This document shows positions 30,821 through 53,115 of a DNA stretch of 64,000 bases, in pieces. Origin of the DNA: an uncultured Clostridia bacterium. GTDB taxonomy: Bacteria; Bacillota; Clostridia; TANB77; CAG-508. Positions within the stretch are counted from its first letter, which is position 1; each line of letters starts with the position of its first letter. The notes beneath the pieces were generated by a model that was given only the letters and a program-made list of their open reading frames with translations, had not been told where the DNA came from and made no database searches. The translations under genes were made by a program, and so were the position numbers. The stretch lies in assembly GCA_944393385.1 (NCBI GenBank), contig CALYAA010000001.1, positions 48,221 through 112,220 on the forward strand, written 5' to 3'.

Positions 30821-30828
30821 GAGTAAAT

Positions 30829-31764: not shown

Positions 31765-31774
31765 GGTGTGAAAG

Positions 31775-33220: not shown

Positions 33221-33229
33221 GTGATTTGA

Positions 33230-36386: not shown

Positions 36387-36399
36387 ATAGGAGAAAAAA

Positions 36400-37158
36400 A
36401 TGTTAATAACTAATATACAACGATTTTCTTTACATGATGGACCGGGGATTAGAACTACAGTATTTCTTAAAGGTTGTAATTTGAGATGCCCATGGTGTGC
36501 TAATCCAGAAAACCTATCATTTCAAAAGGAAGAATATGTTAAAGATGGTATTAAAGGCATTTATGGTTACGAAATAAGTGGAGAAGAACTAGAAAAGGAA
36601 ATTCTAAAAGATAAAATTTATTATGAAGATGGTGGAGGAGTTACTTTTTCTGGAGGAGAAGCATTGCTAGCATTCAAAGAATTGGAACCATTGCTAAAAA
36701 AATTAAAGGAAGATAAAATTAACATATGTGTGGAAACAGCTTTAATGGTAAAAAATGAATTATTAGAAATAGCATTAAATTATGTAGATTTATTTATTAT
36801 TGATATTAAAATATTAGATGACTCATATAGCAAAGAAATAATTGGAGGAAAAGTTCAACTATATAAAGATAATATTGACAGAGTATTTAAAGCAAATAAG
36901 AAATTTATATTTCGAATACCACTAATTAAACCATATACTTGTAATGAAGCAAATTTAAATGAAATATATTCTTTAATACAACAATATCCACCAGAAAAAT
37001 TAGAAATTTTTAAGGTTCATAGATTAGCTGAAAATAAATATAAATCTTTAAATAAGAAAATGATTGAAATACAAGAAGAAGTTACAGAACAAGATATGAA
37101 GAAAATAAAAAAGGATATTGAGAAATTTGCTATTAATGTTGATATTTGTAAATTATAG
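36400..37158 (+). CDS. Glycyl-radical enzyme activating enzyme (radical SAM)
   Basis: QRFSLHDGPGIRTTVFLKGCNLRCPWCANPE, a canonical GRE-activase N-terminus with CX3CX2C. Confidence 0.85.
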   Translation: MLITNIQRFSLHDGPGIRTTVFLKGCNLRCPWCANPENLSFQKEEYVKDGIKGIYGYEISGEELEKEILKDKIYYEDGGGVTFSGGEALLAFKELEPLLKKLKEDKINICVETALMVKNELLEIALNYVDLFIIDIKILDDSYSKEIIGGKVQLYKDNIDRVFKANKKFIFRIPLIKPYTCNEANLNEIYSLIQQYPPEKLEIFKVHRLAENKYKSLNKKMIEIQEEVTEQDMKKIKKDIEKFAINVDICKL

Positions 37159-37169
37159 AAAGGAAAAGA

Positions 37170-38306
37170 TTGATAATGGAAAAATATGATTATTTAATTG
37201 CAGGCTCTGGTCTATTTGGAGCAATATTTGCATATGAAGCAAATAAAAAAGGAAAAAAATGCTTGGTAATAGACAAGCGTTCACATATTGGAGGAAACAT
37301 TTATACAGAAAATATAGATGGAATAAATGTACACAAATATGGAGCACACATATTTCATACAAGCAATAAAGAAGTATGGGAATATATTAATCAATTTGCA
37401 GAATTTAATAGATATACAAATTCACCAGTAGCAAGATATAAAGACGAATTATATAATATGCCATTTAACATGAATACATTTAATAAGTTATGGGGAGTAA
37501 TTACACCTGCAGAAGCAAAAGCTAAAATAGAAGAAGAAAAGAAAGAAGCAGGAATAACAGAACCAAAAAATTTAGAAGAACAAGCTATAAGTTTAGTTGG
37601 AAAAACAATATATGAAAAATTAGTAAAAGGCTATACAGAAAAGCAATGGGGGCAAAGGGCAACAGAACTTCCAAGCTTTATAATAAAAAGACTACCAGTA
37701 AGATTTATTTATGATAATAATTATTTTAATGATATTTATCAAGGAATACCAATTGGAGGATATACACCAATTATAGAAAAAATGCTAGATGGTATAGAAG
37801 TAAAATTAAATTGTGATTTCTTTGAAAATAAAGAAGAGCTAGAAAATATTGCAGAAAAAATTGTATTTACAGGACAAATTGATAAATATTATGATTATAA
37901 ATTTGGAGAACTAGAATATAGAAGCTTAAGATTTGAAACCGAAACTCTAAACGAAGAAAATCACCAAGGAAATGCAGTTGTAAATTATACAGAATATGAA
38001 GTACCTTATACAAGAATTATAGAACATAAACATTTTGAATATGGAGCAAGTCTTGGAAAATTAGCAGAAGGACAAGCAGCAACTAAAACAATTATTACAA
38101 AAGAATATCCAGATAAATGGAGCAAAGAAAAAGAACCATATTATCCAATTAACAATGATAGAAACAATGCATTATATGAAAAATATAAAGAATTAGCAGA
38201 TAATGACAATAAAGTAATATTTGGTGGAAGATTAGGACAATATAAATATTATGATATGGATAAAGTTATTGCAGAAGCATTAAAACTTTCAAAAAATGAG
38301 TTATAA
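37170..38306 (+). CDS. glf: UDP-galactopyranose mutase
   Basis: YDYLIAGSGLFGAIFA FAD motif, HKYGAHIFHT, C-terminal GRLGQYKYYDMD. Confidence 0.9.
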   Translation: MIMEKYDYLIAGSGLFGAIFAYEANKKGKKCLVIDKRSHIGGNIYTENIDGINVHKYGAHIFHTSNKEVWEYINQFAEFNRYTNSPVARYKDELYNMPFNMNTFNKLWGVITPAEAKAKIEEEKKEAGITEPKNLEEQAISLVGKTIYEKLVKGYTEKQWGQRATELPSFIIKRLPVRFIYDNNYFNDIYQGIPIGGYTPIIEKMLDGIEVKLNCDFFENKEELENIAEKIVFTGQIDKYYDYKFGELEYRSLRFETETLNEENHQGNAVVNYTEYEVPYTRIIEHKHFEYGASLGKLAEGQAATKTIITKEYPDKWSKEKEPYYPINNDRNNALYEKYKELADNDNKVIFGGRLGQYKYYDMDKVIAEALKLSKNEL

Positions 38307-38320
38307 GAAAGAGGTATATT

Positions 38321-39373
38321 ATGGGAAAACATAACGAAGAAAAGAAAAAAAGCAAAGGACTAAAAATATTTTTAAGAGTATTATTAATATTATTAATCAT
38401 AATAGTAATAATAGCAGGAATAGCAGTTGGGTATGTAACAAACAAACTTGGAAAAATAACAGTAGAAGAAATAGATGAAACAGCCATAGGAATTGATGAA
38501 GAAACCCAAGAAAGGCTTTCTGGATACAGAAACATAGCATTACTAGGAATAGACAGCAGAGAAGATGACTACGGAGTTGGAAATAGAAGTGACTGTATAA
38601 TAATAGCAAGTTTAGATGAAAAAACAAAACAAATAAAACTAATTTCAGTATATAGAGACACATATATGCAAATTGAAGAAAAAGGAAAACAAGTTCTAGA
38701 TAAAGTAACACATGCTTATGCATATGGAGGAGCTCAAAATACATTAAAAGCTTTAAATACAAATTTAGACTTAAATATTACAGAATATGTTACAGTTAAC
38801 TTTGATGCAGTTATATCAGCAGTTGATGCAATGGGTGGAGTAACAATAAATATAGATAGTTCGGAAATAGAATATATAAATGATTATATTAAATCTACAT
38901 CACAAAGCTCAGGAATAAGTTCAAATGCTATAACAAAGGCAGGTTCACAAACATTAGATGGTGTACAAGCAGTTGCATACTCAAGAATAAGATATACATC
39001 TGGTGGAGACTATAAGAGAACTGAAAGAATGAGAACTGTAATAGAAGCTATGCTAAATAAAGCAAAAACCTTAAGTATTAGTCAATTAAATAAACTAATT
39101 GATACAGTATTACCTAGAGTAAGTACAAATATATCTGGTGCAGAAATATTAGGATTAGTACCAAGTATTACTTCATATTCAATATCAGATAGTATAGGAT
39201 GGCCATATAAAACAGAAGGTATAACATTAGATAGATGGTATGGAGTTCCAGTAACACTTGAAAGTAATGTTTTACAATTGCATCAAGAAGTATTTGGACA
39301 AACAGATTATGTTGTAAATGATACTATTAAAAATATAAGTCAACAAATAATAAATAAAACAGGAAAGAAATAA
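38321..39373 (+). CDS. LytR-CpsA-Psr (LCP) family glycopolymer-to-peptidoglycan ligase
   Basis: N-terminal TM helix, then LLGIDSRED...SDCIIIASLD...ISVYRDTY. Confidence 0.85.
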   Translation: MGKHNEEKKKSKGLKIFLRVLLILLIIIVIIAGIAVGYVTNKLGKITVEEIDETAIGIDEETQERLSGYRNIALLGIDSREDDYGVGNRSDCIIIASLDEKTKQIKLISVYRDTYMQIEEKGKQVLDKVTHAYAYGGAQNTLKALNTNLDLNITEYVTVNFDAVISAVDAMGGVTINIDSSEIEYINDYIKSTSQSSGISSNAITKAGSQTLDGVQAVAYSRIRYTSGGDYKRTERMRTVIEAMLNKAKTLSISQLNKLIDTVLPRVSTNISGAEILGLVPSITSYSISDSIGWPYKTEGITLDRWYGVPVTLESNVLQLHQEVFGQTDYVVNDTIKNISQQIINKTGKK

Positions 39374-39381
39374 TAATTAAA

Positions 39382-39410
39382 GGCGGAAAATTTTTCCGCC
39401 TAAGTTTTTA
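39382..39410. terminator. Terminator closing the polysaccharide cluster (bidirectional)
   Basis: AGGCGGAAAATTTTTCCGCCT followed by AAGTTTTTA. Confidence 0.8.
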
Positions 39411-39438: not shown

Positions 39439-40152
39439 CTACTCAACCACCTCAAACAAACCAAACCCCTGAGAATTCCTATTACCCAAGCCACAGTCAT
39501 ACAAAAAAGACAAATAATCAGGAGAGCCACCCAATATAAAATTACCCTTCCAAGCAGTAATATAAACATTTTTCAAAGAAGTCACAACCTTATCAGAAGA
39601 AGAAACACAAGTAGTAATAATTTCAACATCAGAAAAAGGAGCAGTATTATAATAAGACAAAAACTTTTTACAAAAATTATTATTTATATATTGCTCAAAA
39701 TCTTTATCCTGAGGAGAAAGATAAACAGTTTTATTATCCTCAACTCTTTTAGACAAACAAATAGGAGAATTCATTTTAATATCAATACTATTTTCTCTAA
39801 TAACCCTATTTTCCAATTTCAAACTTACAGGAAAATTTTCAGTTCCAAAAGTAATTCCATTACATTTCAAATATTCATAAACAAGAAAAATAAAATAGCT
39901 ATCAACACTCCTTATTTCCAAAAAAACATTTCCAGTAAAAGTAATCCTTTTATTACTAATTGAATGTTTTCCACATAATGAACTAAAAGTAAAAAGCTTA
40001 AAATTTGATTCATTTTGTCCAACATCATGCAATAATTTTTGATAATGAATATCATTAGACAAAGCAGTATAAATTACGCCTTGTAAAATATGAGAATAAT
40101 TAATAGGTAAAGTCAAATTTCTATTTAAATTTATATAAACTTTTAATTGCAT
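39439..40152 (-). CDS. cas6: CRISPR-associated endoribonuclease Cas6
   Basis: Start MQLKVYINLNRNLTLPINYSHILQGVIY with a GGAGGAG RBS; C-terminal Gly-rich loop GLGNRNSQGFGLFEV; the track's longer ORF starts at a TTG at 40170. Confidence 0.85.
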   Translation of the reverse strand: MQLKVYINLNRNLTLPINYSHILQGVIYTALSNDIHYQKLLHDVGQNESNFKLFTFSSLCGKHSISNKRITFTGNVFLEIRSVDSYFIFLVYEYLKCNGITFGTENFPVSLKLENRVIRENSIDIKMNSPICLSKRVEDNKTVYLSPQDKDFEQYINNNFCKKFLSYYNTAPFSDVEIITTCVSSSDKVVTSLKNVYITAWKGNFILGGSPDYLSFLYDCGLGNRNSQGFGLFEVVE

Positions 40153-40239
40153 AATAATAATCTCCTCCAAAATATTAGTTCAATTATATCACATAAAAAT
40201 AAAAAAACAACAAAAACTATTTAATATTTAAATACATTA

Positions 40240-40248
40240 TGGTATAAT
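40240..40248 (+). promoter_or_regulatory. Extended -10 element (TGgTATAAT) in the divergent cas6 / NTPase intergenic region
   Basis: TGGTATAAT 39 nt upstream of the 40287 start. Confidence 0.4.
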
Positions 40249-40286: not shown

Positions 40287-42923
40287 ATGGAAAAATTAAA
40301 TCAAGAAACATATTCAAAACAATTCACAGACAGAGTAGAAGCAAGAGAGCTATTTTGGAAAGAATACCAAAAATTAAGCACTGAAATAAATGAGGGAAAA
40401 ACAGGAACCGACCCCACACAAACCAACCCCAAATTAATTAACTATTATGGAATTGGAGGAATGGGAAAAACCACATTAATAAACCAATTAATAAAAGAAC
40501 TTTCAAAAAATGACAAAGAAAATTTGTCAATATTTATTGATGCCGAAGATTTCAATAATACACTAGATGTTTTATATTCAATCAGAAATATTTTAAATGA
40601 AAACTACAAAATAAAATTCAACAAATTTGATCTAGCACTAATTATCTATTTAAAAAAAGTAGGAAAAAGTCAAGAATCTCCAGAAATAAAAGACATATTA
40701 AATAGTAATCCTATAGCAAAATTAATAGGAGACACAATTTCAAATGTATCTATTCCAATGTTATTAATAAAAAATGGATTAGACAAACTAATAAGTATAG
40801 GCATGAGTCAAAGGTACAAAAAATTTGTTCAAAGTATAGAAATAGAACAATTACCAAATAACATATTAGAAAACTTGCCACAATATCTTGCAGATGACAT
40901 AAATGAATATTTAAAAGGAAAAAACAAAAAAATAATATTCTTCTTCGATACATTCGAAAAATTAGATGAAAGCACAATAGGAAGTACAGCAACATTAAAT
41001 AAAACAAAATGGTTATATAATATTCGTAATACAGGAATAATAAACGAAATAAAAAACAGCATATTTGTAATAGGAAGTAGAGAAAAAATAAATGAAATTC
41101 CGGGAATTAAATATTTTAAACTAGATAAGTTTGATGAAAAATATTCATATGAATATTTAAATAATGCTGGTATTAAAGATATTAATTTATGTAAAGAAAT
41201 ATTTAATAAATATACAAATGGAATGCCATTAATGCTTAGTACATGTGTAGACAGTTATAATATAGAATCACATGAATTATTTGTACAAAATATATCTGAT
41301 AGCAGTCAAGGAATAATAGAAAGACTAATAGGAAGTTTAGACTTAGATAGTCAAGCACTAGTATATTTCTTAAGTTGTGTAAAAAAGTGGAATGATAAAT
41401 TCATTATAAAAAACGCTCCAAAATGTCTAGAAAACTTTTCAAGCTATAGATATGAAAGTATAAAAAAATTATCATTTATAACCAAAGACTTACAAGGAAA
41501 CTACACATTTGACAAAACAATTCGTATGATACTACATAGTGAAAATAATGAATTTGTAAATAATATGAAATACATAATTCAAAAAACAAATAAATTTCTA
41601 ATAGATTACTATAAAGAAATATTAGAAAACAGTAATTCAACAATAACAGAAAAAAATACAGCATTAAACCAATATATAAAAAGAAAAATTTTATTAGAAA
41701 ATAACCCAAAAGAACTAATAAATGACTATAAATTTATCAAAATACATTTAAAAGAACTAGAAGAACTGTTTTTATTTGACGATTTATCAAAACATCTAAA
41801 CAGATTACTTGAAAAATATAATAATATTATAGAAGTTAAAAATTCAATAATAGAAGAACAAATTAATATATTATATTTATCAGGTCAATATAAAGAAGAA
41901 GAATCAAAATCAAAACAATATTTTGACTTAGATCCAAAAAACACAAGAGCAATTGAAAAACTAGCAATTGCATATATGCATAACAGCAAATACAAATTAG
42001 CTAATGAAAAAATTAATGAAGTTTTAAACCAAACAGAAAAAACAGACCTAAAAAATTATATAAGAGTATTAATGGAAGCATCAGAAATCAAATCTCGAAT
42101 GGGTGAATATAATACAGTATTAGAAAATTACATATGGATAAAGAAAAAACTAAATACAATATATGAAAAAAATGATTTATCTAAAAAAGAACTTGAAATA
42201 GAAAGACTTATAGCCAAAACATATTCATATATGGGAGATTATAAAAAAGCAATAGAAAATTATAAAAAAATATTAAATATAAATGGAGATGAAGTTATAC
42301 AATTAGAACAAAATAAAGAAATTTTAACAATTGATGAATTAAATTTTTACAATGATTTAAGTAATACATATTCAAACAATAATGAATTTGAAAAGGCACT
42401 AAAAATAAAAGAAAAACTTTTAGAAATATATACAGAAATATTAGGAGAAAACCACCCTTGGACACTAAATGTAAAAAATGATATAGGAATGATTAAGTCA
42501 CATCAAAAAAACTATGAAGAAGCAATTAAAATCTTAAAAGAAACATATGAAGCAAGAAAACAAGTTTTAGGAGAAGAGCACTTATCTGCAATTGCAACAT
42601 TAAATAATTTAGCAATTGTTAAAGTATTTTATGCAGATGGCTTAACAGATGAGCTTAAGAAAAAAGAAATATATACAGATTCTTTGTTACAACTTGAAAC
42701 TGTATACAAAATAAGAAAAAATAATTTAGGTGAAAACCATCCAAGTACATTAAGAACATTATTTAATATTTCAAAAAATTTAAAAGAACTTGGAAGAAAG
42801 CAAGAAGCATTACAAATAGCACAAAAACTTTACGAAACCAGAAAAAGTACTTTGGGAGAAGAAAATCAAGAAATAGTAAAAACAAAACAATTAATTGACG
42901 AAATTAATTCTTTAAATGCCTAA
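40287..42923 (+). CDS. STAND/NB-ARC-like P-loop NTPase with a C-terminal TPR array
   Basis: Walker A GIGGMGKTT (40450-40476), Walker B-like IIFFFDTFEKLDE, and a C-terminal about 350 aa of TPR-like repeats (NHPWTLNVKNDIGMI, EEHLSAIATLNNLAIV, ENHPSTLRTLFNISK). Confidence 0.75.
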   Translation: MEKLNQETYSKQFTDRVEARELFWKEYQKLSTEINEGKTGTDPTQTNPKLINYYGIGGMGKTTLINQLIKELSKNDKENLSIFIDAEDFNNTLDVLYSIRNILNENYKIKFNKFDLALIIYLKKVGKSQESPEIKDILNSNPIAKLIGDTISNVSIPMLLIKNGLDKLISIGMSQRYKKFVQSIEIEQLPNNILENLPQYLADDINEYLKGKNKKIIFFFDTFEKLDESTIGSTATLNKTKWLYNIRNTGIINEIKNSIFVIGSREKINEIPGIKYFKLDKFDEKYSYEYLNNAGIKDINLCKEIFNKYTNGMPLMLSTCVDSYNIESHELFVQNISDSSQGIIERLIGSLDLDSQALVYFLSCVKKWNDKFIIKNAPKCLENFSSYRYESIKKLSFITKDLQGNYTFDKTIRMILHSENNEFVNNMKYIIQKTNKFLIDYYKEILENSNSTITEKNTALNQYIKRKILLENNPKELINDYKFIKIHLKELEELFLFDDLSKHLNRLLEKYNNIIEVKNSIIEEQINILYLSGQYKEEESKSKQYFDLDPKNTRAIEKLAIAYMHNSKYKLANEKINEVLNQTEKTDLKNYIRVLMEASEIKSRMGEYNTVLENYIWIKKKLNTIYEKNDLSKKELEIERLIAKTYSYMGDYKKAIENYKKILNINGDEVIQLEQNKEILTIDELNFYNDLSNTYSNNNEFEKALKIKEKLLEIYTEILGENHPWTLNVKNDIGMIKSHQKNYEEAIKILKETYEARKQVLGEEHLSAIATLNNLAIVKVFYADGLTDELKKKEIYTDSLLQLETVYKIRKNNLGENHPSTLRTLFNISKNLKELGRKQEALQIAQKLYETRKSTLGEENQEIVKTKQLIDEINSLNA

Positions 42924-42950: not shown

Positions 42951-43907
42951 ATGACAGAAATAGAACAAAAAATTCTTAACACAAAAGAAAGTAAAATAGT
43001 ATTAACAGAAAATATAGAAGAAGCAGATTTAATAACACATAATGGAACATTTCATTCTGATGAAGTTTTTAGTACAGTATTACTTTCCAATGTTCTGAAA
43101 AAAGATATATTAAAACTATGTAGAACTTCAAATATAAAAGAAGGTATAACTGGATTTGTATATGATGTAGGCTATGGAAAATATGATCACCATCAACCAG
43201 GGGGAAATGGAGAAAGAAAAAACGGAATAAAATATTCTTCATTTGGATTAGTATGGAGGGATTTTGGAAAAGACTACTTAAAACAACTAAATTGCTTACA
43301 AATTGAAGAAGTATGGTCTATGGTAGACAAAAAATTAGTACAAAATATAGATGCAATAGATAATGGTCAACTTGGGAAATTGACACAATTTGATTTTGAA
43401 GTAGTAACACTACCAAATTTAATTTCAATGTATAATTCTAATTGGGATGATGAACAAGCAAATCAAAATGAAATGTTTTTAAAAGCTGTGCAATTTGCAC
43501 AAACAGTTTTTGATAGATTTATAATAAGTGTAGTATCAAAAATTAGAGCAAAATCTAGAGTAGAAGATGCAATAGAAAATTCTAAAAATCAAATTTTAAT
43601 ATTAGAAAAATTTATGCCATGGAAAGAATTTCTATTAGATTCTGAAAATGAAAAGGCAAAAAATATTTTATTTGTAGTGTTCCCGTCAAATAGAGGTGGA
43701 TATAATGTATATGCTGTTCCAAAAGAAAATGGAAGTTTTGAATCTAGAAAATTATTTCCAGCAAAATGGGCAGGTTTAAAAGATGAAGAACTTTCAAAAA
43801 TTTCCGGGGTTGCAACAGCAACATTTTGCCATACAGGAAGATTTATATGTGCAACCAGAACAAAAGAAGATGCAATTAAAATTGCAAGAATAGCAGTAGA
43901 AGCATGA
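42951..43907 (+). CDS. MYG1/UPF0160-family metal-dependent hydrolase (predicted 3'-5' exonuclease or phosphodiesterase)
   Basis: Signature ITHNGTFHSDEVFS (43038-43064) and DHHQ; 318 aa. Confidence 0.7.
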   Translation: MTEIEQKILNTKESKIVLTENIEEADLITHNGTFHSDEVFSTVLLSNVLKKDILKLCRTSNIKEGITGFVYDVGYGKYDHHQPGGNGERKNGIKYSSFGLVWRDFGKDYLKQLNCLQIEEVWSMVDKKLVQNIDAIDNGQLGKLTQFDFEVVTLPNLISMYNSNWDDEQANQNEMFLKAVQFAQTVFDRFIISVVSKIRAKSRVEDAIENSKNQILILEKFMPWKEFLLDSENEKAKNILFVVFPSNRGGYNVYAVPKENGSFESRKLFPAKWAGLKDEELSKISGVATATFCHTGRFICATRTKEDAIKIARIAVEA

Positions 43908-43921
43908 AAGGAAAAATAAAA

Positions 43922-45700
43922 ATGAATAAAAGATATCTAATAACTGGAGTAAGCGGGGTAGATCCATATACAAATATATATTTAGTACCACAAATAATTA
44001 CAGAAAAAATAATAGATGATGGAAGTAAAATAGAAATAAAGTACAAAAATAATAAAGATACTAAAATTCCACAAGAAGTAAAATTAGATGAAATTTTTAT
44101 AGATGGTTCAATGCTTAACATATTAAGAAAATATATAAAAAATGGTAATCCAATTACAGATATATATATTTATTTAACACAAGAAATGAAAAAAAGAACA
44201 CAAATTTATGAAACATCAATAAAAAATCTATATGAAAGTAATGGTATTAATAATTTTAATATAGTATTTTACCCAAATGATTTTTATGAAGAGTGTGAAG
44301 AAAGATTTAGAGCAGATGATGTGCAAAAATTTGCATCATATTACAAGGAAATTTATGAAATATATTCTAAAATTATAAAACAAGGTAATTCAGATGAGAT
44401 AATACTTAATATTTCATCTGGAACACCAGCATTTAAAGCAGATATGATGATTATGGCAGTTACAAACAATTTGAAAATTGAGCAAACAGCAAATTCTATT
44501 GAAAGTAAAGATTTAAAAAATTATGTTATGCAAAAAGAAAAAGTACTATATGATGATATTAAGCAAAAATTAGAAGATGCTAAATTAAATTATAAAGATG
44601 CAAAAACAAAAATACAAATTGAATCAAGACAGATAAAAGATTTTCAATTAGACAAAATTAATGAACAATTAGATTTTTTAAATGAAACAGAAAATTCCTT
44701 AGAAACAAGAACTTCAAGAGAAAGTATAGATGAAATAAAAAAGATAATATTGCTTGAAAGCATTGAAGATAGTATACAGAAAAAGGATTATTGTGGTATT
44801 TACTACAATTTAATAAGCAATGAACAATATTTAAAAAATAATAAACAAGAATTATTAGAAATAGCAGGAAATTTATATTATAGATATATTGGTAATGACG
44901 AAAAAGCAAAAAAAAGTATTCAAAATAATGAACAAAATAATTTAGAAAATTATTATCCAATTTATAAAGCAAATTCAATAAAAAATTGTACTGATGATGT
45001 TAAAGAAGATATAAATGCTATTATAGAAAAAAGTAATATTATGAAAATAAAATCTCAAAGAGAAGAAATAAATGATTGGTTACTTATTAGTACACCATTA
45101 ATAGAAGCAATTTCAAGTTTAATAGTAACTCAAAAAACTAAATTTGATTTTGAAAATATAATAAGTAAATCTAATAATAAAACAACAATTTCATTAAACT
45201 TATTTAATAAAACAGCACCAAAAGAAATAAAAGAAAGGTATGAAAAAGTTGTAAAAGAGAGTGATAATAATTTCTTAAATGCGTATTTCTATAAAAATAT
45301 AATTTTTCAAATGTTAAAAACAACTGATAAACAAGAAGAAAAAGACAATATAAACAAAATACTTGATTATATTTATATAGTAGATTTAGCAAGAACAGAA
45401 AGAGTATCTGCAGCACATAGTATTCAAAATATTAGCAAAAATGAATTTGAAAGATTATATAAAGATAAACTATTAAAACACAGTAGATATTATAGCTTAA
45501 AAAACATCACTCAAAATTATATAAACAAACAAGCAAACCAAAGCATAAAATGTGTTGAAAGAGCTGTAAAAGAATTAATTGCTAATATTTTACCAGATAA
45601 TAGTGAAGAAACAATCAAATGTTTTGAAGAAAGTATAAATATATATAATACACTAGAACAAAAAATTATTAAACTTTTAAAAGATGAAATATATAATTAA
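43922..45700 (+). CDS. CARF-HEPN protein (Csm6/Csx1-like)
   Basis: N-terminal CARF-like motifs RYLITGVSGVDP and LNISSGTPAFKADMMIMA; C-terminal HEPN-like R-X4-H (RVSAAH at 45401-45418); the track ORF begins 18 nt earlier. Confidence 0.65.
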   Translation: MNKRYLITGVSGVDPYTNIYLVPQIITEKIIDDGSKIEIKYKNNKDTKIPQEVKLDEIFIDGSMLNILRKYIKNGNPITDIYIYLTQEMKKRTQIYETSIKNLYESNGINNFNIVFYPNDFYEECEERFRADDVQKFASYYKEIYEIYSKIIKQGNSDEIILNISSGTPAFKADMMIMAVTNNLKIEQTANSIESKDLKNYVMQKEKVLYDDIKQKLEDAKLNYKDAKTKIQIESRQIKDFQLDKINEQLDFLNETENSLETRTSRESIDEIKKIILLESIEDSIQKKDYCGIYYNLISNEQYLKNNKQELLEIAGNLYYRYIGNDEKAKKSIQNNEQNNLENYYPIYKANSIKNCTDDVKEDINAIIEKSNIMKIKSQREEINDWLLISTPLIEAISSLIVTQKTKFDFENIISKSNNKTTISLNLFNKTAPKEIKERYEKVVKESDNNFLNAYFYKNIIFQMLKTTDKQEEKDNINKILDYIYIVDLARTERVSAAHSIQNISKNEFERLYKDKLLKHSRYYSLKNITQNYINKQANQSIKCVERAVKELIANILPDNSEETIKCFEESINIYNTLEQKIIKLLKDEIYN

Positions 45701-45719
45701 AAGAAAGAGAGGATTATAA

Positions 45720-47255
45720 ATGGAAGATAATAAACCATATATTGCAATTTATGATGTAAGAGGAATTCAAAATTACATATTCAGGACAAATGCTGTAAAA
45801 GAGATAATTGGTGCTTCTAAAATAGTTGACAAACTTATTATAAATGAATTTGCATATGCTACAAATAAAATTAAAACTGAGAAAGAAATTAAAGAAGATG
45901 AAATTGTATTAGATTGGGATAAACAAAAAGAGTATCTATTTGATACAAACTCAAATATAAAAATTGAAGTTTTATATTATGGAGGAGGAAATTTAGTAGT
46001 ATTATTTAGAAATGAGGAATTGTGCAAAACTATAAGTATAGAAATGGCAAAAAACATTATAAAAAATGCATATGGACTATCTTTGGTATATGCATATACA
46101 GAAAAAACACAAGATTATAATGATGATTGGGTAAAATTAAAGCAAAAATTGTCAGAAATAAAGGCTGTAACCTCACTAAATAAACCTGCTGGAATACTTC
46201 CAATAGTTAGATATGATGGTGTAACAGGAAAACCTTTATCAAAAAAATATGATGGTAAAATGGTTATTTATGAGGCATATCAAAAACTAAAAAAAGCAGA
46301 AGAAGTGGCTACAGAAAAAAGTGAATATATAAAAGAATTTGACAAAATGAGAACATCTAATGAAGAAGGTTTAATTGCAATTGTACATATTGATGGTAAT
46401 AGCATGGGTGCAAATATAAGAGAAATAATGAAAGATACAAATACATATCAAGAGGCAGTATGCAAAATGAGAGAAATCTCAAGAAATATTCATGAAGTTT
46501 TTGAAGTAAAAGCTATAAATAGTGTAAAAGAAAAAATAAATTATATATGTAAAAAACATGATATAGAAATAAAAAATAATGAATTACCATTTAGACCAAT
46601 TATACAGGCTGGTGATGATATTACATTTGTATGTAATGAGAGAATTGCATTAGATATTGTAAAAGAATATATAAATTCAATAAAAAAAGGTTTTATGTAT
46701 GAGCAAAAATATGAATTTAGTGCTTGTGCTGGAATTGCTATTGTACATAGTCATTTCCCATTTTATAAAGGATATCAAATTGCAGAACAATGTTGTGCAA
46801 TTGCAAAAATAAGAGCCAAAAATGAGGGAATGGTAAATGGTAAAATTGGCAACTTTGTGGATTTTGAATATTGCTATTCTGGTAATACAGTGGAATTAGA
46901 GGATTCTAGAAAAAGAAATTATTGCAATATAGAGGGAATTAATTTATTAAAAAGACCTTATGGAATTTATAATGAAGATGAAGTTTTAAATGAGACTCAA
47001 AAAAATTTTGATTTAAAAGTTTTTGAAGAAGATATGCAAATGTTAAAAGGTATTTCTAGAGGAACGGCAAAAGCTTTTAGAGATGTTTATTATAAAGAAA
47101 TTGCAATAGTTAATACATTATTTAAAAGACAAGAAATAAAAAATGGAATATCTTATAAAAATCCTTTTAAAGAGGTTAATGGCAAAAAATATGCAGAATA
47201 TTTTGATTGCTTAGAAATGTTAGATATATTTGGTGTAAAGGAGGAAGAAAAATAG
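45720..47255 (+). CDS. Minimal Cas10-like cyclase/polymerase palm-domain protein (no HD domain)
   Basis: IAIYDVRGIQNYIF and YYGGGNLVVLF (Cas10 palm-1-like); VHIDGNSMGANI and QAGDDITFV (palm-2 with GGDD-like AGDD at 46621-46629); 511 aa. Confidence 0.65.
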   Translation: MEDNKPYIAIYDVRGIQNYIFRTNAVKEIIGASKIVDKLIINEFAYATNKIKTEKEIKEDEIVLDWDKQKEYLFDTNSNIKIEVLYYGGGNLVVLFRNEELCKTISIEMAKNIIKNAYGLSLVYAYTEKTQDYNDDWVKLKQKLSEIKAVTSLNKPAGILPIVRYDGVTGKPLSKKYDGKMVIYEAYQKLKKAEEVATEKSEYIKEFDKMRTSNEEGLIAIVHIDGNSMGANIREIMKDTNTYQEAVCKMREISRNIHEVFEVKAINSVKEKINYICKKHDIEIKNNELPFRPIIQAGDDITFVCNERIALDIVKEYINSIKKGFMYEQKYEFSACAGIAIVHSHFPFYKGYQIAEQCCAIAKIRAKNEGMVNGKIGNFVDFEYCYSGNTVELEDSRKRNYCNIEGINLLKRPYGIYNEDEVLNETQKNFDLKVFEEDMQMLKGISRGTAKAFRDVYYKEIAIVNTLFKRQEIKNGISYKNPFKEVNGKKYAEYFDCLEMLDIFGVKEEEK

Positions 47256-49375
47256 TGAAAAAGAAATTACAAATAAAATTAAAAAGTGATTTATGTGCTG
47301 GATCAGGTGAAAGCTTAGGGAGTTTAATTGATACTGATATTTGTTATGATTGTTTTGGACTAGCATATATTCCTTCTAAAAGACTAAAAGGTTTATTAAA
47401 AGAAGCATTTATAGAATATTCTGATTGGGCAAAAAATGAAAATAATACAGAACTTTTTGATAAAATTAATAAAAACTTATTTGGAGTTGAAAATTCAAAT
47501 AATTCTAGTAATTTAAAAATAGATAATGCATATTTGGAAAATACAGATTTAATTGAAAATGAAATTCAAAATGTTGAAAATAGATATAAAAAATATTTAA
47601 CCAAACAAAGAATAATAAATTTAAATACAGATATAAGATATCAAACAGCTGTTGTAATTGAAAGTGGTGTTGCAAAAGAAAATTCTTTAAGAAATATAAG
47701 AATTATAGAAGCAGGAAATATTTTTGAGGCTATTCTAGAATGTGATACTGAAGAAGAATCACAAATATTAGAAAAATGTGTTAAATTAGTAACACATATG
47801 GGAAATAATAGAACAAGAGGATTTGGTGAAATAGAATGTAAGCTTTTGGATATGGAAGAGGAAAATCAGGAATATGTAACACATAAATTCGAACCAGAAA
47901 AAGAATATGAGATTAAATTAATTCTAAAAGCTGAATCAAATATAATGGTATCAAAACAGTTTTCTGAAATTACTGAAAATTATATTCCTGGAAGTAATAT
48001 AATGGGTAGTTTTGCATCTAAATACATAAAAGATAATGATATAAATGATTTTGAAAATTTAACAGATGAATATATTAATTTATTTTTAAATGGAAATGTA
48101 AAATATTCAAATGCATATATTACAGAAAAAGATGGATATGTTCAATATTATCCTGCTCCATTAAGCTATTCAAAAGTTAAAAATAAAAGCAAAGTTTATC
48201 ATAATAAAATGTTTGACGTTAATGAAACTGATATACAACTTTCTAATTTTGGAGATAAATTTGTTACATTAGATGAAAACAATTATGTTAAAGAGGTAGA
48301 TACAATAGAACATTATCATCATCAAAGAGCAAAAGATTTATCAATAGGACATGTTTCAACAGGAAATGATGGAGGAACATTTTATCAATTTTTAAGTATA
48401 GAAAAAGGTCAATATTTTATGACCAGTATTAATGGAAAAGGTAAATATTTAGATAAATTAAGTAAATATTTAAAAGAAAATGAAATCTTAAGAGTTGGCA
48501 AATCTAAAACAGCTGAATATGGAAAACTAAAAATAACAAATATAAAAATTTCTGAAGATATAGAAAAAAGAAAAAAATATAATAAATTTGCAGTTATTTT
48601 AACTTCAGCTCTAATTTTATTAGATGAAGAAAATGTTCAAATTGCAAAAGATAAAGAAACACTTATAAAAACATTAAAAAATTTATTTAAAAACGAAAAT
48701 TTAAAAGATGTTAAATCATTTATAGGTTACACAGAAGAATCAGGATTTAATGCTATTTGGAATTTACCAAAAGAGCAAGTGGTTTCGTATTCGGCAGGGA
48801 CAACTATAGTTTTTGAATCATCAGAATCAATTGAATTAAAAGAAAAGTATATAATTGGAGAAAGAACAAATGAAGGATATGGACAACTAATTGTTTATTC
48901 TTTAGATGAAAAAAATGATTCTACATTAAAATTAAATGAATATAAACAAAACGAAAAAGAAATAGAATATAGTAAATTAAACAAAGAAACAAGAAAATTA
49001 CTTAATAAATCCATAAAAAAGGTAATTAATGAAGAAATATTAGAAAATGCTTTTAATACAGTTACATCAAATTATAATAAAGTAAATATAAATAATACAA
49101 CAATAGGAAGAATTTTATTAATGTTAAAAGAATCAAAAAATTATGCTGACTTTGATGAAAATGTAAATGGAATAAAAGATGTAAAAAAATTAGATAATGT
49201 TATAAAAATAATAGAAAATAAAGATAGAATATATTCTTTACAAGCATATAAAGATTATGAAGACGGATTAAAAAGTATTACAGGAGTAATACAAGAATCA
49301 GAAAAAGAAAAATTTATATTAGAATATATAAAACAATTTTTTACAATTTTAAAGATAATGGGAGGTAAAGAATAA
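47255..49375 (+). CDS. Large RAMP protein (Cas5/Csx10- or Cas7-like) with a C-terminal helical extension
   Basis: GTG start after an AAGGAGG RBS (the track ORF starts 48 nt earlier); N-terminal LCAGSG...YIPSKRLKGLLKEAF RAMP G-motif; Gly-rich loop NEGYGQL; the last about 150 aa are helical. Confidence 0.65.
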   Translation: MKKKLQIKLKSDLCAGSGESLGSLIDTDICYDCFGLAYIPSKRLKGLLKEAFIEYSDWAKNENNTELFDKINKNLFGVENSNNSSNLKIDNAYLENTDLIENEIQNVENRYKKYLTKQRIINLNTDIRYQTAVVIESGVAKENSLRNIRIIEAGNIFEAILECDTEEESQILEKCVKLVTHMGNNRTRGFGEIECKLLDMEEENQEYVTHKFEPEKEYEIKLILKAESNIMVSKQFSEITENYIPGSNIMGSFASKYIKDNDINDFENLTDEYINLFLNGNVKYSNAYITEKDGYVQYYPAPLSYSKVKNKSKVYHNKMFDVNETDIQLSNFGDKFVTLDENNYVKEVDTIEHYHHQRAKDLSIGHVSTGNDGGTFYQFLSIEKGQYFMTSINGKGKYLDKLSKYLKENEILRVGKSKTAEYGKLKITNIKISEDIEKRKKYNKFAVILTSALILLDEENVQIAKDKETLIKTLKNLFKNENLKDVKSFIGYTEESGFNAIWNLPKEQVVSYSAGTTIVFESSESIELKEKYIIGERTNEGYGQLIVYSLDEKNDSTLKLNEYKQNEKEIEYSKLNKETRKLLNKSIKKVINEEILENAFNTVTSNYNKVNINNTTIGRILLMLKESKNYADFDENVNGIKDVKKLDNVIKIIENKDRIYSLQAYKDYEDGLKSITGVIQESEKEKFILEYIKQFFTILKIMGGKE

Positions 49376-50634
49376 TGATTAAATCAAGAATTTATTTTTA
49401 TATTAGAATGGAATTATTATCTCCTATATCTATTGGTAGTGGTGATGATTTTATTACAGATCATGATTGTTTAAAAAATAGTAAAGGAGAGCCATTTATA
49501 CCAGGTACATCATTTGCAGGAGTGTTTTCTCATTATTTAAATAATGAACAAAGAGAAATATATACTCCAATGTTAAAAAATGATTATAAACAAAGCCCAT
49601 ATTACATATCAGATGCTAAAATATATTTTGATAATTCTGAAGAGAAAGTTCATACAAATATTAGAGACGGAGTAAAACTTGATAAATACAAAACAGCTGA
49701 AAAAGGTGCAAAATTTGATTTTGAAGTAGTAGAAACTGGAACAAAATTTGATTTTAGAATAGAAGTTATTGTAAGAGATAATGATGAAATTTCTAAAATG
49801 AAAGAAATAGTTGATATTATATTAAATGGTCTAAATAAAGGAGAAATCTTATTAGGATTTAAATCTAAAAGAGGATATGGTAAGGTTAAAATACTAGAAA
49901 CAAAAATAAAAGAATTTGAAAAAGGTCAAATAGAAGAATTACTTCAATTTAATAAATATGATATTAATAATTATAGTAATTACCAAATAAGTAATATAGA
50001 AAGTCAAAATAGATTTGATTATATAAAAGTTGATTTAAAACAATTAGGTGGAATAAGTATAAGAAAATACAGTGCAAAAGCTGGGAATGTTGATTTTGAA
50101 CATGTTACATCAAATGGTAAACCAGTTATTCCAGGTACTAGTTGGAATGGTTTAATAAGAAGACAATTATTAGAATATTTAAATAGTGATTTATTATCCA
50201 AATCTGGAGTTATATTATCAGATTGGTTTGGAAAAGAAAAAAATGGAGAACAAGAAGCTTCAGCTTCAAATATTATAATAGAAGAATCTAAAATTGATAA
50301 TTCTAAAAAAATTGATTTAACTAGAAATAAAATTGATAGATTTTCTGGTGGTGCAGCAAATAAAGCATTATTTTCTGAAACAGCATATTTTAATGGTACA
50401 ACAAGTCTTGGAATTAAAGTAAAAAAACATATAAAACAAGATGAAGATAATTCTAAAATAATTGGTTTAATAGCATTAGTTATAAAAGATATTGATAATG
50501 GTTTAGTAGCACTTGGAGGACAAACTTCAATTGGTAGAGGTTTATTTAAAGTAGAAAATGTTACTATAAATGGACAAGATATGGATTTAAATGATGCAAT
50601 AAACAATATTCTTGGAGGTGTTACAGGTGAATAA
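49375..50634 (+). CDS. Tandem Cas7-Cas7 RAMP fusion
   Basis: Two complete units: ISIGSGDDF...FIPGTSFAGVF...KRGYGKV and KPVIPGTSWNGLIRR...GGQTSIGRGLFKV. Confidence 0.7.
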   Translation: MIKSRIYFYIRMELLSPISIGSGDDFITDHDCLKNSKGEPFIPGTSFAGVFSHYLNNEQREIYTPMLKNDYKQSPYYISDAKIYFDNSEEKVHTNIRDGVKLDKYKTAEKGAKFDFEVVETGTKFDFRIEVIVRDNDEISKMKEIVDIILNGLNKGEILLGFKSKRGYGKVKILETKIKEFEKGQIEELLQFNKYDINNYSNYQISNIESQNRFDYIKVDLKQLGGISIRKYSAKAGNVDFEHVTSNGKPVIPGTSWNGLIRRQLLEYLNSDLLSKSGVILSDWFGKEKNGEQEASASNIIIEESKIDNSKKIDLTRNKIDRFSGGAANKALFSETAYFNGTTSLGIKVKKHIKQDEDNSKIIGLIALVIKDIDNGLVALGGQTSIGRGLFKVENVTINGQDMDLNDAINNILGGVTGE

Positions 50635-51004
50635 AGATGAAATAATTAATTTAATAAAAACTCAAAATATAGAAAATGCAAATGTTTTAGGAATTTTTTA
50701 TAATAAAGTTTGCATTGGCGAATTTAATAATAATGAAATTATTTTTAATGAAGAAGTTAATTATTCATTATGTAATCAAATTAGAGTTTTTAATAAAAAT
50801 CTGGAATTAAGAATAATAGAAAAAGATGGTAAAATTTTAAACAAAAAAATTGATGATAATTTTGGTATAGATTATTTTGATGAATCTATGTTTTTAAGAG
50901 ATAATTTTGATAAAAGATTAGTTGTAAGAAATTATTTGAATACAGATAAAAATAATCAAGTAATTATTAAAGATTCTAGACTAGTAGAATTTGTTTCAAA
51001 TTGA
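50627..51004 (+). CDS. Small protein in the effector operon (candidate small subunit or unknown)
   Basis: 125-130 aa ORF with a GGAGGTG RBS, between Cas7 genes; the track ORF begins at a TTG at 50612, and the GTG at 50627 used here is my inferred start; no recognisable motif. Confidence 0.4.
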   Translation: MNKDEIINLIKTQNIENANVLGIFYNKVCIGEFNNNEIIFNEEVNYSLCNQIRVFNKNLELRIIEKDGKILNKKIDDNFGIDYFDESMFLRDNFDKRLVVRNYLNTDKNNQVIIKDSRLVEFVSN

Positions 51005-51033
51005 TTTACAATTATTAATATAAATAGCCTTAA

Positions 51034-53115
51034 ATGAAGGAGAAAGTGAAAAATATGCAAAATTTATATAATAAAAATAATTATAGACAAAATAACAATA
51101 AAAATAATAACAATAAAACTAGTAATAACTTAAAAGTTGACGAATCTGTAAAATATATAAATCCATATAATTTTATAAGTTTACCACAAAAATGTGAAAG
51201 AAAGCCAGAAAACGAGAGAAGAGGAGATTTAACAGGATATATTGAATGTGTTTTAACAACAAAAACTCTAACAATGGTTCCAGATACTAACAGTATAGAA
51301 GAAGTAAACATTGGAGATAATAAGAAATTAAAAAAATACAAATTTTTTAATTATGGAGAAATAAATAAAAAAGGTAATTTTACTATTCCAGTAATATCTG
51401 GTAGTGAAATAAGAGGAATGCTTAGAACAGATTATGAAATTTTTACAGATTCTTGTATGTCAACATTAGATGATGATGTAAAATTTATATCTAGAACTAA
51501 AAATGCAAAAAATCCAGGAATTTTAGAAAAAGATGATTCAGGAAAATGGCATTTATACAAAGCTGTAAGACATTCTTTACATACTTGTAGAAAAGGAAAA
51601 GGTGTACCTAGAAATTTAAATGGTAAAAATGAAGCAATTTATTTTGTAGATGAAAAAAATCAAATAAAAATAGGGGATAAAATATATAAAACAGGAGATA
51701 AAGTTAAATTTTCTTATAAAGAAACAACTTCAGCACAAATAGTTTTATCTATTGGTAGTGGAAATACTGAAGGAATATTATTTATAGGTGAATTAGGTGG
51801 TTCAAAAGATATAGATAAAAAAGGAAATAATAATATACATGATAGTATTTTTGTTAAACAAGATACAGAAGTTAAAATTTCTAATATATCAGAAAGTATT
51901 AATGAATTAAAAGAAATTTTGGATATGTATAATGATAAAGCATTTAATCAAAAAATAAGAGGTAAAAATAAAATTTGGTATGCAGGTTATGATATAGAAA
52001 ATTCTAAATATCTTCCTGTTTGGTATAGTAATCCAGATGATAAAAACAGAAGTTATTTATCTTTAGCAGCAATAGGAAAAGAAGCATATCATAGAAAATT
52101 ACATGAATTAGTTGGAGAATTTATGCCTTGTATTGATAAAAATAATATATGTAATGCATGTAATATGTTTGGCTTTGTATCAGAAAATGATGCAATATCT
52201 TCAAAATTACGTATATCTGATGCAATTTATGAAGAAGATGAAAATCCATATTATAAAACAATAGTAACAAAAGAATTAGCAAGTCCACATATTGCAAATG
52301 CAGCATTTTATGCATTATACGCTCCAAATACACAAACAGATAATCAACCACAAAATTTTGATTTTAATTATGACTTTGTAAATATATCATCTAAAAATGC
52401 AAAAGAAATTAAAAAGGAGCAAATTACAATAAGAGGAAGAAAAATATATTGGCATCATGATGATATACAAAGAAATATTATAACAAATGCAAAAGAAATA
52501 ACAGAAAGAAATTGTGAAATAACACCAGTAAAATCTAATATTAATTTTAAATTTAAAATATTTTTTAATAATATTAATCAACAAAATTTAAAAGAACTAA
52601 TAGCAGTATTAAATTTAAAATATAAAAATTTGGACTTATATCATAAAATAGGAAAAGCAAAACCATTAGGATTTGGAAGTTGTAAAATAGAAGTACAAAA
52701 TGTTTATATAAGAAATATAGAAAAAGTAAATGGAAAATTAGAATATTCTATGGTAAATTATGAAAAATATTTTAATACAACTTCTGTAAAAGATATAGCT
52801 TTAGATGTGTTTGATATGACAACTATACCAATGCAAGAAGCTTTAAAAATATTTGATTTTAATTATATAAAAAATAATTATAATGATGCAGTTGTACAAT
52901 ATCCAATAGGAGTAAAAAAAGGAAAAGAAGCAAGTATGTATTGGTTTATGCTAAATAAAGTAGTTGATCAAGGAAAAAATTATATTTTAATGGTATTACC
53001 ACGAATTATAGATGGAAAAAATGAAAAAGGAGAAGAAAAACAAAGAGATTTAGAAATTAATACAAAAAAATTAGGTTCAACAAAAGGCTTAATTTTACCT
53101 AAATATATTAATTAA
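51034..53115 (+). CDS. Cas7-family RAMP with a Zn-finger insertion and an N/K-rich N-terminus (Csm5/Cmr6-like)
   Basis: INPYNFISLP; G-motif IPVISGSEIRGMLR; CX2C...CX2C (CIDKNNICNACNMFG); terminal Gly-rich loop GKAKPLGFGSCKIEV. Confidence 0.7.
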   Translation: MKEKVKNMQNLYNKNNYRQNNNKNNNNKTSNNLKVDESVKYINPYNFISLPQKCERKPENERRGDLTGYIECVLTTKTLTMVPDTNSIEEVNIGDNKKLKKYKFFNYGEINKKGNFTIPVISGSEIRGMLRTDYEIFTDSCMSTLDDDVKFISRTKNAKNPGILEKDDSGKWHLYKAVRHSLHTCRKGKGVPRNLNGKNEAIYFVDEKNQIKIGDKIYKTGDKVKFSYKETTSAQIVLSIGSGNTEGILFIGELGGSKDIDKKGNNNIHDSIFVKQDTEVKISNISESINELKEILDMYNDKAFNQKIRGKNKIWYAGYDIENSKYLPVWYSNPDDKNRSYLSLAAIGKEAYHRKLHELVGEFMPCIDKNNICNACNMFGFVSENDAISSKLRISDAIYEEDENPYYKTIVTKELASPHIANAAFYALYAPNTQTDNQPQNFDFNYDFVNISSKNAKEIKKEQITIRGRKIYWHHDDIQRNIITNAKEITERNCEITPVKSNINFKFKIFFNNINQQNLKELIAVLNLKYKNLDLYHKIGKAKPLGFGSCKIEVQNVYIRNIEKVNGKLEYSMVNYEKYFNTTSVKDIALDVFDMTTIPMQEALKIFDFNYIKNNYNDAVVQYPIGVKKGKEASMYWFMLNKVVDQGKNYILMVLPRIIDGKNEKGEEKQRDLEINTKKLGSTKGLILPKYIN

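Follow-up and report, generated by a model that had tools for sequence, protein, structure and literature searches.

A MYG1/UPF0160-family phosphoesterase gene linked to type III-D CRISPR loci of uncultured gut Clostridia: a possible oligoadenylate off-switch

Introduction

In type III CRISPR systems, defence is delegated to accessory enzymes, and the switching off of the signal decides between recovery and death of the infected cell. To our knowledge, the only off-switches of cyclic hexaadenylate (cA6) signalling known so far are the self-limiting Csm6 and the recent Crn4. The present work concerns a stretch of 64,000 nucleotides from an uncultured Clostridia bacterium (assembly GCA_944393385.1, contig CALYAA010000001.1, positions 48,221 to 112,220 of the forward strand; hereafter the window, whose own numbering is used throughout) and, in particular, a gene at 42951-43907 that encodes a MYG1/UPF0160-family protein and lies in a type III-D CRISPR locus.

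Enzymes that remove type III signals have been described in several settings. Two kinds of type III accessory, the DHH-family protein NrN and the DEDD nanoRNase-like phosphodiesterases, are encoded next to CorA and degrade S-adenosylmethionine-AMP (SAM-AMP) (PMC10600005), and crn4-type ring-nuclease genes adjoin or are fused with Csm6-2 in III-D loci (PMC12830947). Type III-D systems, in turn, are reported to rely mainly on cyclic oligoadenylate (cOA) signalling (PMC11229360). In the window, the MYG1 gene lies in what appears to be the same operon as a cyclase-competent-looking Cas10d and a CARF-HEPN ribonuclease, directly upstream of the latter. We tentatively favour the idea that this MYG1 protein, as a metal-dependent phosphodiesterase, resets Csm6 by clearing the oligoadenylate signal, an idea to which we give somewhat less than an even chance; with the same reserve, the protein may be a specialised paralog recruited as an accessory of a III-Dv-like CRISPR system.

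Results

A full-length MYG1-family protein with an intact active site

The open reading frame (ORF) codes for 318 amino acids from an ATG that is preceded, 8 nt upstream, by the ribosome-binding-site-like sequence AAAGGAAA; the opposite strand contains many stop codons. Its product is a full-length member of the MYG1/UPF0160 family with its active site intact. It matches Pfam PF03690 (MYG1_exonuc) with an E-value of 4.6e-73 and 247 bits (cut-off 22.1) over profile positions 2-317 of 318, and it carries the motif THNGTFHSDE at residues 29-38; the family assignment that an earlier, sequence-only reading of the window had drawn from HNGTFHSDE is thus confirmed. All the catalytic and metal-binding motifs are present, that is H-x4-H-x-D, D-x6-DHH, D-x2-DNG and the histidine of the C-terminal F-C-H, the C-terminal histidine being the residue reported to confer the RNA preference of MYG1 (PMC6582341). 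Ten residues (H30, H35, D37, D72, D79, H80, H81, D134, D137 and H294) are invariant in the 16-18 aligned homologs, and the same ten are invariant in 9 CRISPR-linked and 97 other non-redundant copies. Seven positions, in turn, mark the CRISPR-linked copies: D26, K128, a one-residue insertion at 146, E150, Y161, S163 and Q172.

The protein has the two-lobed fold of the DHH type, the superfamily fold also found in NrN, GdpP and PggH, together with homology to a solved MYG1 structure: a profile built from the bacterial MYG1 relatives of the clade matched the solved chains of human 'MYG1 exonuclease' at E 8e-39, and a Foldseek search with the MYG1 model against a PDB set devoid of the human MYG1 entries returned weak DHH/DHHA1-like matches. 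PF03690 was the sole Pfam match, the DHH and DHHA1 models giving none, and no match was obtained in PADLOC (ring nuclease and CARF models included), NCBIfam or PHROGs. By sequence and fold, the protein falls outside the described signal-degrading families (Crn1-4, Csx15/16/20, NrN, DEDD and SAM-AMP lyase). At 50% identity, bacterial UPF0160 proteins fall into about 5,000 clusters. A survey of the 150 top-ranking representatives from 1.84 billion clusters found no fusion of MYG1 to CARF or to other domains, and the longer proteins carried no other Pfam domain.

Conserved linkage with the CARF-HEPN and cas10d genes

MYG1 homologs were collected by exact-protein look-ups and by scans of metagenomes and of a set with one genome for each GTDB species, which gave 183 loci in total (cited below by their L-numbers). 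The order MYG1, CARF-HEPN, cas10d is kept in about 11 lineages of uncultured gut Clostridia, represented besides the window by L001-10, L014-16, L096-98, L100, L102, L175, L180, L181 and L183; the three genes are adjacent in 11 out of 11, with 3-93 nt between the first two. Across these lineages the identity to the window is 54-98% for MYG1 and 62-97% for Cas10d, and falls to about 27-31% for CARF-HEPN. The gene-neighbourhood analysis that the sequence-only reading had proposed thus shows a linkage of MYG1 with cas genes over many lineages and in several chromosomal contexts. At 117 other MYG1 loci for which 2.5 kb or more of sequence was available downstream, no cas genes were detectable.

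At the window's own chromosomal site, the same cassette is accompanied by MYG1 copies of 98%, 82% and 80% identity (L001-7, L016 and L180). The upstream context of the linked genes is varied, being formed by LytR/cas6/STAND, by ligA and small ORFs, by a gene for a thioester-domain (TED) protein or by an AIM24/sigma-factor region. In L014/15 (MYG1 71% identical) the order is CRISPR array, cas6, MYG1, Csm6-like gene, Cas10d, and in L014 cas6 is the immediate divergent neighbour of MYG1, beside the array. The STAND-TPR gene is present in L181 (69%) and L096 (68%). In L008-10 (63%) MYG1 lies 3' of ligA and three small ORFs, and no cas6 was found within 10 kb upstream of it in L008; L098 and L102 carry copies of 61%, the one in L098 lying 3' of the TED surface protein gene. 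The most divergent copies are those of L175 and L183 (about 54%); in L183, cas6 stands at the opposite end of the cassette, 9.5 kb away, and MYG1 still adjoins the CARF gene.

The comparison of closely related strains revealed a clear recombination breakpoint at the CARF-HEPN/cas10d boundary (window 43904-45720). Against L001, the window shows 100% identity for cas6, 98% for STAND, 98% for MYG1 and 95% for CARF-HEPN, followed by 87-66% from Cas10d to the Cas7 with the large insertion; against L005, the corresponding values are 80%, 73%, 80% and 82%, followed by 97-91%. The left-hand module (cas6, STAND, MYG1 and CARF-HEPN) has therefore been exchanged between strains separately from the genes of the effector complex.

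As for mobile elements, the only phage copy of MYG1 was found on one unannotated 4-kb 'phage' contig (33% identity), and the plasmid matches are megaplasmid or chromid copies (34-38%). A parallel with anti-CRISPR proteins gains no support from these matches.

The signalling partners

The invariant residues of the CARF-HEPN protein, namely N169, S172, G173, T174 and R500-x4-H505, include those of the CARF S-G-T and HEPN R-x4-H motifs, and these motifs are kept throughout its small family (54 clusters). When its AF2 model (pLDDT 88) was searched with Foldseek, the best match was the Csm6 of Enterococcus italicus with a cA6 analogue (E 7.5e-13, TM 0.77 on target); the top matches, 6tug and 8pe3, are both cA6 complexes and include the Streptococcus thermophilus Csm6' (StCsm6'), and the cA4-dependent Csm6/Csx1 proteins matched far more weakly. 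Since the model resembles cA6-bound Csm6 most closely, the protein is likely a cA6-class Csm6, and cA6 the likely messenger.

Cas10d has no HD domain. Its motifs VHIDGNSMG, AGDD and, in Palm1, YYGGGNLVVLF are invariant in 13 lineages, AGDD standing in place of the canonical GGDD cyclase motif. The lack of the HD domain implies that the system would depend on oligoadenylate signalling.

A second MYG1 copy, the phylogenetic tree and a decayed locus

The window corresponds to the locus of the metagenome-assembled genome 'uncultured Clostridia bacterium BRZ_D__bin85' (L016, 99% identity). A second MYG1 gene (L066), 48% identical and in a non-cas context, is found in the same assembled genome on another contig of similar coverage, and one metagenome likewise holds both a 100% identical copy (L100) and an L066-type copy (L148). 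Neighbour-joining analysis of about 120 non-redundant MYG1 sequences grouped nine CRISPR-linked lineages in a single clade (bootstrap 64/100), which also contains three sequences whose context is unknown or lost.

The sequence-only reading had taken the occurrence of the ortholog at the same locus in relatives devoid of cas genes as the mark of a housekeeping gene. Such an occurrence was seen only in a sister species (L017), where MYG1 lies at the window's exact chromosomal site with the cas genes absent, flanked by GLF and LytR upstream and by the same seven genes downstream (proteins 77-98% identical). This locus is a deletion derivative. The last 49 codons of STAND are found directly 5' of its MYG1 gene (61% identity, E 6e-13), and L017:9566-11163 shares 98% DNA identity with L181:1676-5769, where the cassette is intact. 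The deletions are clean, having removed the body of STAND and the genes from CARF-HEPN through the last cas7, and cas6 was lost as well; the 274 bp retained 5' of STAND, ending 96 bp before the STAND start of L181, are joined to the 3' end of STAND and MYG1. Two or three separate deletions thus spared MYG1 and the expected promoter region. L017 is a recently decayed locus nested in the CRISPR-linked clade and, because of the STAND remnant and of the 98% DNA identity to the intact L181, it does not refute the linkage. A housekeeping ortholog is ruled out by the second copy of 48% identity, by the varied chromosomal contexts and by the derivation of L017 through deletion.

Two further observations concern the surroundings of MYG1 genes. 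In L099:4595-10273, which belongs to the sister branch of the CRISPR-linked clade, the gene lies in a likely mobile, recombinase-bearing element with the order serine recombinase, MYG1, DUF2779/Cas4-like nuclease (3 nt downstream), HerA/DUF87 ATPase (on the opposite strand), NUDIX and thymidine kinase. An ORF of about 110 amino acids (MDVSLFFVVNGKFLIHSC...DYFPRGRVVY...CHKCNKNY) is located just 5' of MYG1 at L008:9608-9943, L096:2858-3193, L011:~9258-9590 and 16 other loci; it has no match in Pfam or PHROGs and is absent from the window. The pair that it forms with MYG1 occurs both at CRISPR-linked loci (L008-10, L096-97) and at a set of loci outside CRISPR, and the small protein is a possible partner of MYG1.

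The type III-D locus and the other features of the window

The coordinates of the features are collected in Table 1.

Table 1. Features of the window relevant to the MYG1 gene, its operon and its surroundings (window numbering).
Feature	Position	Strand	Evidence
Glycyl-radical enzyme	33230-35230		Homology to L001, L002, L005
Radical-SAM activase	36400-37158		Homology to L001, L002, L005
UDP-galactopyranose mutase	37170-38306		Homology to L001, L002, L005
LytR-CpsA-Psr gene	38321-39373		Homology to L001, L002, L005
Bidirectional terminator-like hairpin, left locus edge	39381..39401		9-bp stem, 5 GC pairs, found on both strands
cas6, crRNA-processing endoribonuclease, divergent	39439..40170	-	Pfam Cas_Cas6_C E 7e-31; TIGR01877 E 5e-34; PADLOC Cas6b E 8e-57
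Putative sigma-70-like promoter	40221..40248	+	TTAATA, 16 nt, TG-TATAAT
STAND NTPase-TPR	40287..42923	+	Pfam NB-ARC, TPR_12, TPR_10
MYG1/UPF0160-family DHH-superfamily phosphoesterase, CRISPR-linked paralog	42951..43907	+	Pfam PF03690
Csm6-class CARF-HEPN ribonuclease	43904..45700	+	Pfam Cas_Csm6_CARF; TIGR02672 csm6 (below cut-off); PADLOC CARF_HEPN
Cas10d, 511 aa, HD-less	45720..47255	+	PADLOC Cas10d E 4e-115; Pfam Cas10 palm2
Cas7-Cas5 (Csx10) fusion	47207..49375	+	PADLOC Cas5_IIId E 3e-171, N-terminal Cas7_IIId match; TIGR02674
Cas7x2, two fused Cas7/RAMP domains	49375..50634	+	Pfam RAMPs, 2 stretches; PADLOC Cas7_IIId E 2e-116
Csx19 small subunit	50612..51004	+	TIGR03984 E 1e-14; PADLOC Csx19
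Cas7 with large insertion, last cassette gene	51034..53115	+	TIGR03986 E 7.5e-68; PADLOC Cas7_IIId E 1.5e-137

The hairpin at the left edge of the locus separates the LytR-family gene from the 3' end of cas6. The promoter-like site, located 5' of the STAND gene, is the strongest on the plus strand of the region and likely drives the operon. The gaps between genes are 27 nt from STAND to MYG1, -4 or +15 nt (by start codon) from MYG1 to CARF-HEPN and 19 nt from CARF-HEPN to cas10; the ATG of CARF-HEPN at 43904 overlaps the MYG1 stop, and the ATG at 43922, which is preceded by the ribosome-binding site AAAGGAAAA, is the probable true start. On the plus strand from the promoter to the end of the cassette, one weak terminator-like hairpin was found within the MYG1 coding region (43487-43501, 6-bp stem) and no other. 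Given the small gaps, the single promoter-like site and the scarcity of terminators, the genes from STAND to the last cas7 can be read as one putative operon that embeds STAND, MYG1, CARF-HEPN, Cas10d and the III-Dv-like effector genes. By its gene composition, the cassette at 45720-53115 is assigned to type III-D and is III-Dv-like, in line with the composition given in the description of the subtype (PMC13294483). The claim of the sequence-only reading that MYG1 is embedded in a CRISPR operon is therefore borne out, PADLOC and NCBIfam identifying the genes as type III-D. Its placing of a STAND-TPR gene upstream and of a CARF-HEPN gene downstream of MYG1 also stands; MYG1 is not directly upstream of cas10 as it had stated, the CARF-HEPN gene lying between the two.

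The STAND protein has an NB-ARC P-loop domain at residues ~46-257 and C-terminal TPR repeats; only ~45 residues precede the P-loop, no effector or DNA-binding domain is recognisable in it, and PADLOC and PHROGs gave no match. No CRISPR array was revealed in the 64-kb window by Tandem Repeats Finder, by a search for direct repeats or by one that used the repeat of L014, and cas1 or cas2 was seen neither in the window nor in any related locus retrieved; an array may lie elsewhere in the genome. The array of L014, beside cas6 (L014:235-613), has the 30-nt repeat GTTTCGAGACTCTAAAGAGTAAGGTAAAAC and spacers of about 35-44 nt.

Farther upstream, at ~23000-39400, the window contains a surface-polysaccharide cluster that includes, by homology to the annotated L001, L002 and L005, the first four genes of Table 1; its gene content varies between strains. 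A 1261-aa ORF (19183-22968) harbours 126-nt tandem repeats at 22000-22285 (2.3 copies, 72% matches), and the intergenic DNA at 8034-8137 and 6729-6778 contains 36-38-nt short tandem repeats that share the motif 'AAAAAGG..ACC..CC'; a similar repeat lies beside cas6 in L181:138-252.

Discussion

A possible off-switch of the Csm6 response

According to the reading that we favour, the binding of target RNA would activate the Palm domain of Cas10d (with its AGDD variant) to make a cyclic oligoadenylate, probably cA6, which would activate the adjoining Csm6-class CARF-HEPN RNase. MYG1, translated from the same transcript just ahead of Csm6, would then hydrolyse the signal, either by opening the ring itself or, more conservatively, by cutting the linear oligoadenylates released by Csm6 (of A3>P type) to mononucleotides, and the loss of the signal would limit and reset the RNase response. 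We infer the oligoadenylate substrate and the role as an off-switch from three considerations: MYG1 stays beside the CARF-HEPN gene whatever befalls cas6 or STAND; an HD-less system depends on signalling; and NrN, DEDD, the Sulfolobus DHH-DHHA1 protein and crn4 offer precedents.

Several points weigh against this reading. We know of no biochemically characterised bacterial member of the MYG1 family. The support of the CRISPR-linked clade is moderate, and L175 and L183 fall outside it, nearer the non-CRISPR copies, a placement that may reflect either a second recruitment or a poorly settled deep branching. In these same two loci (L175:10001-10892 and L183:8058-8965) the MYG1 frame is broken at a shared position close to residue 105 of the window protein, and its repair requires a +1 shift in L175 ('TTT C GGC') and a +2 or -1 shift in L183 ('TAC CG GCG'). 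The two genes share 73% DNA identity, and both halves are stop-free with their motifs, but L183 lacks the GGNG motif after DHHQ; the break could represent recoding, a split gene or repeated decay. A programmed +1 frameshift, considered for the 'UUU CGG C' of L175, does not fit, L183 requiring -1 or +2. Furthermore, since L182 carries a related III-D cassette (Cas10d 61%) without MYG1, the latter appears, from gene content, to be a dispensable accessory of a III-D sub-branch and not a core gene. The presence of cas6 inside the left-hand module means that the exchange of this module does not separate a signalling role from one in the processing of CRISPR RNA (crRNA), and the occurrence of the pair of the 110-aa ORF and MYG1 outside CRISPR loci implies that the ancestral job of this MYG1 branch would not have involved cOA.

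Two results on better-known proteins point the same way. Human MYG1 was reported to act as a 3'-5' exonuclease and to lack endonuclease activity (PMC6582341), so that the opening of a cyclic substrate is not implied by membership of the family, and cA6-dependent Csm6 limits itself through its CARF domain, releasing linear products (PMC7101355), so that an extrinsic off-switch would not be strictly required. The wider proposal that bacterial MYG1 proteins are a new metal-dependent family of oligoadenylate-signal phosphodiesterases, acting as an extrinsic off-switch of cA6/Csm6, appears to us doubtful, if worth keeping in mind.

Alternative explanations

The main rival, possible though on balance somewhat unlikely in our judgement, is that MYG1 acts as a 3'-5' RNA exonuclease, either trimming the 3' end of crRNA after Cas6 or clearing, as a co-effector, the RNA fragments left by Csm6 and Cas7. 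Eukaryotic MYG1 is indeed a Mg2+-dependent 3'-5' exonuclease that prefers RNA (PMC6582341), yeast MYG1 is antiviral against the L-A double-stranded RNA (dsRNA) virus, human MYG1 complementing its loss (PMC10089162), and a locus-encoded CRISPR-associated NYN RNase proposed to trim crRNA provides a precedent (PMC11346440). The sharing of the recombining left-hand module with cas6, which adjoins MYG1 beside the array of L014, is also in agreement with this idea. However, the constant neighbour of MYG1 is CARF-HEPN and not cas6, as the distant cas6 of L183 and its absence upstream of MYG1 in L008 illustrate, and a cassette without MYG1 (L182) and interrupted copies (L175 and L183) would be odd for an obligatory maturation step. 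In addition, HEPN and Cas7 produce RNAs that end in a 2',3'-cyclic phosphate, and such an end usually stops a 3'-5' exonuclease.

It is less probable, and in our view rather improbable, that MYG1 is a passenger, that is, that a mobile or fast-evolving MYG1 module, at times with the 110-aa ORF, landed beside an ancestral III-D cassette and has since been co-inherited only through tight linkage. The survival of MYG1 alone with the operon promoter region in L017 after the loss of all the cas genes would suit a passenger, as would the interrupted frames of L175 and L183, the absence of the gene from L182, its pairing with the 110-aa ORF also outside CRISPR loci, the recombinase-bearing element of the sister branch L099 and the moderate bootstrap of the clade. 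Nevertheless, gene order and orientation are maintained over lineages in which the identity of Cas10d is as low as 62% and that of CARF-HEPN about 27-31%, and across repeated changes of the upstream context; the active-site residues are invariant, the gaps to the CARF gene are operon-like, and the genome already possesses another MYG1 copy. Neutral passengers in defence operons, moreover, are usually lost fast.

Lastly, the idea that MYG1 is the effector output of the STAND-TPR sensor, the two genes forming a defence module nested in the CRISPR locus (a partnership already put forward in the sequence-only reading), would fit a STAND protein devoid of an effector domain of its own, its gene lying immediately upstream of MYG1 in the window and in the L001, L005, L180, L181 and L096 lineages, and the joint recombination of the two genes, but it is very unlikely, since STAND is missing from 6 of the 11 linked lineages (L014/15, L008-10, L098, L102, L175 and L183), where MYG1 remains linked to CARF-HEPN and Cas10d, L017 lost STAND and kept MYG1, and no PADLOC defence model matches either protein. 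STAND is a recurrent, non-obligatory accessory gene of these III-D loci.

Significance

If the role as an off-switch were true, a conserved MYG1 paralog next to the Csm6-class RNase would extend the signal-control toolkit of type III systems by a new enzyme family, and would repeat the pattern of NrN and DEDD, in which nanoRNase-like phosphodiesterases were repurposed for signal turnover. In that case MYG1 would also count among the immune components that prokaryotic defence loci share with eukaryotes, because its eukaryotic homologs restrict a dsRNA virus in yeast, and the bacterial UPF0160 family would be tied to eukaryotic MYG1 and to its unexplained antiviral role in yeast. The CRISPR context would thus provide the first concrete substrate hypothesis and the first functional handle for bacterial UPF0160 proteins. 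Taxonomically the association is narrow, being confined to a small group of gut Clostridia known only as uncultured lineages, and the function proposed for MYG1 is inferred.

Comparison with known systems

Full-text searches for literature linking MYG1, UPF0160, COG4286 or PF03690 to CRISPR returned nothing relevant, supplementary tables being outside their coverage, and the main texts of a 2018 survey of type III accessory genes and of a 2024 analysis of type III loci contain no mention of MYG1. This is consistent with the statement of the sequence-only reading that it knew of no MYG1 protein described as a CRISPR component, and a III-D locus with MYG1 would represent a new candidate accessory enzyme family, a prior mention being possible. 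The accessories described for III-D systems include Csm6-2, CorA, Crn4, NucC and TIR-SAVED (PMC11229360, PMC12830947), MYG1 and STAND-TPR not being reported as such; the effector genes at 45720-53115, in turn, have the same composition as the type III-Dv cassettes (PMC13294483).

Among eukaryotic proteins, human C12orf10 and yeast YER156C belong to the same Pfam family and share the DHH and C-terminal histidine motifs. Yeast MYG1 limits a dsRNA virus (PMC10089162), so that the yeast protein and that of the window are both found in antiviral settings. Eukaryotic MYG1 works in the nucleolus and in mitochondria, where it processes rRNA and mRNA as a 3'-5' RNA exonuclease. No tie of it to second-messenger nucleotides or to systems that use guide RNAs is known to us. 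The CRISPR-associated NYN RNase (PMC11346440) is locus-encoded, metal-dependent and proposed to act in crRNA maturation, thus resembling MYG1 as seen in the RNA exonuclease alternative; unlike MYG1, it has a PIN/NYN endonuclease fold and occurs in CorA/SAM-AMP loci.

The NrN of the CorA-type type III system of Bacteroides fragilis (PMC10600005) belongs to the DHH/DHHA1 family, and MYG1 resembles it at the superfamily level only. Its partner is CorA, whereas that of MYG1 is a CARF-HEPN RNase, and it is specific for SAM-AMP, with no cutting of cA2-6 or pApA (PMC10600005), whereas the signal expected here is a cOA, probably cA6. The DHH-DHHA1 protein of Sulfolobus islandicus (PMC7841402), of the DHH superfamily like MYG1, has been shown to degrade cOA; it differs from MYG1 in being archaeal, membrane-associated, encoded outside the CRISPR locus and a canonical DHH-DHHA1 protein. 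The known ring nucleases have folds unrelated to that of MYG1 and are mostly metal-independent, with 2',3'-cyclic phosphate products, Crn3 being a metal-dependent exception. Nevertheless, Crn1, Crn2, Crn3/Csx3, Crn4 and Csx15/16/20 share with the locus of the window the same genomic logic, that of a small enzyme gene beside or fused to a cOA-activated effector in type III loci with a cyclase, Crn4 being specifically tied to type III-D and Csm6-2 (PMC12830947).

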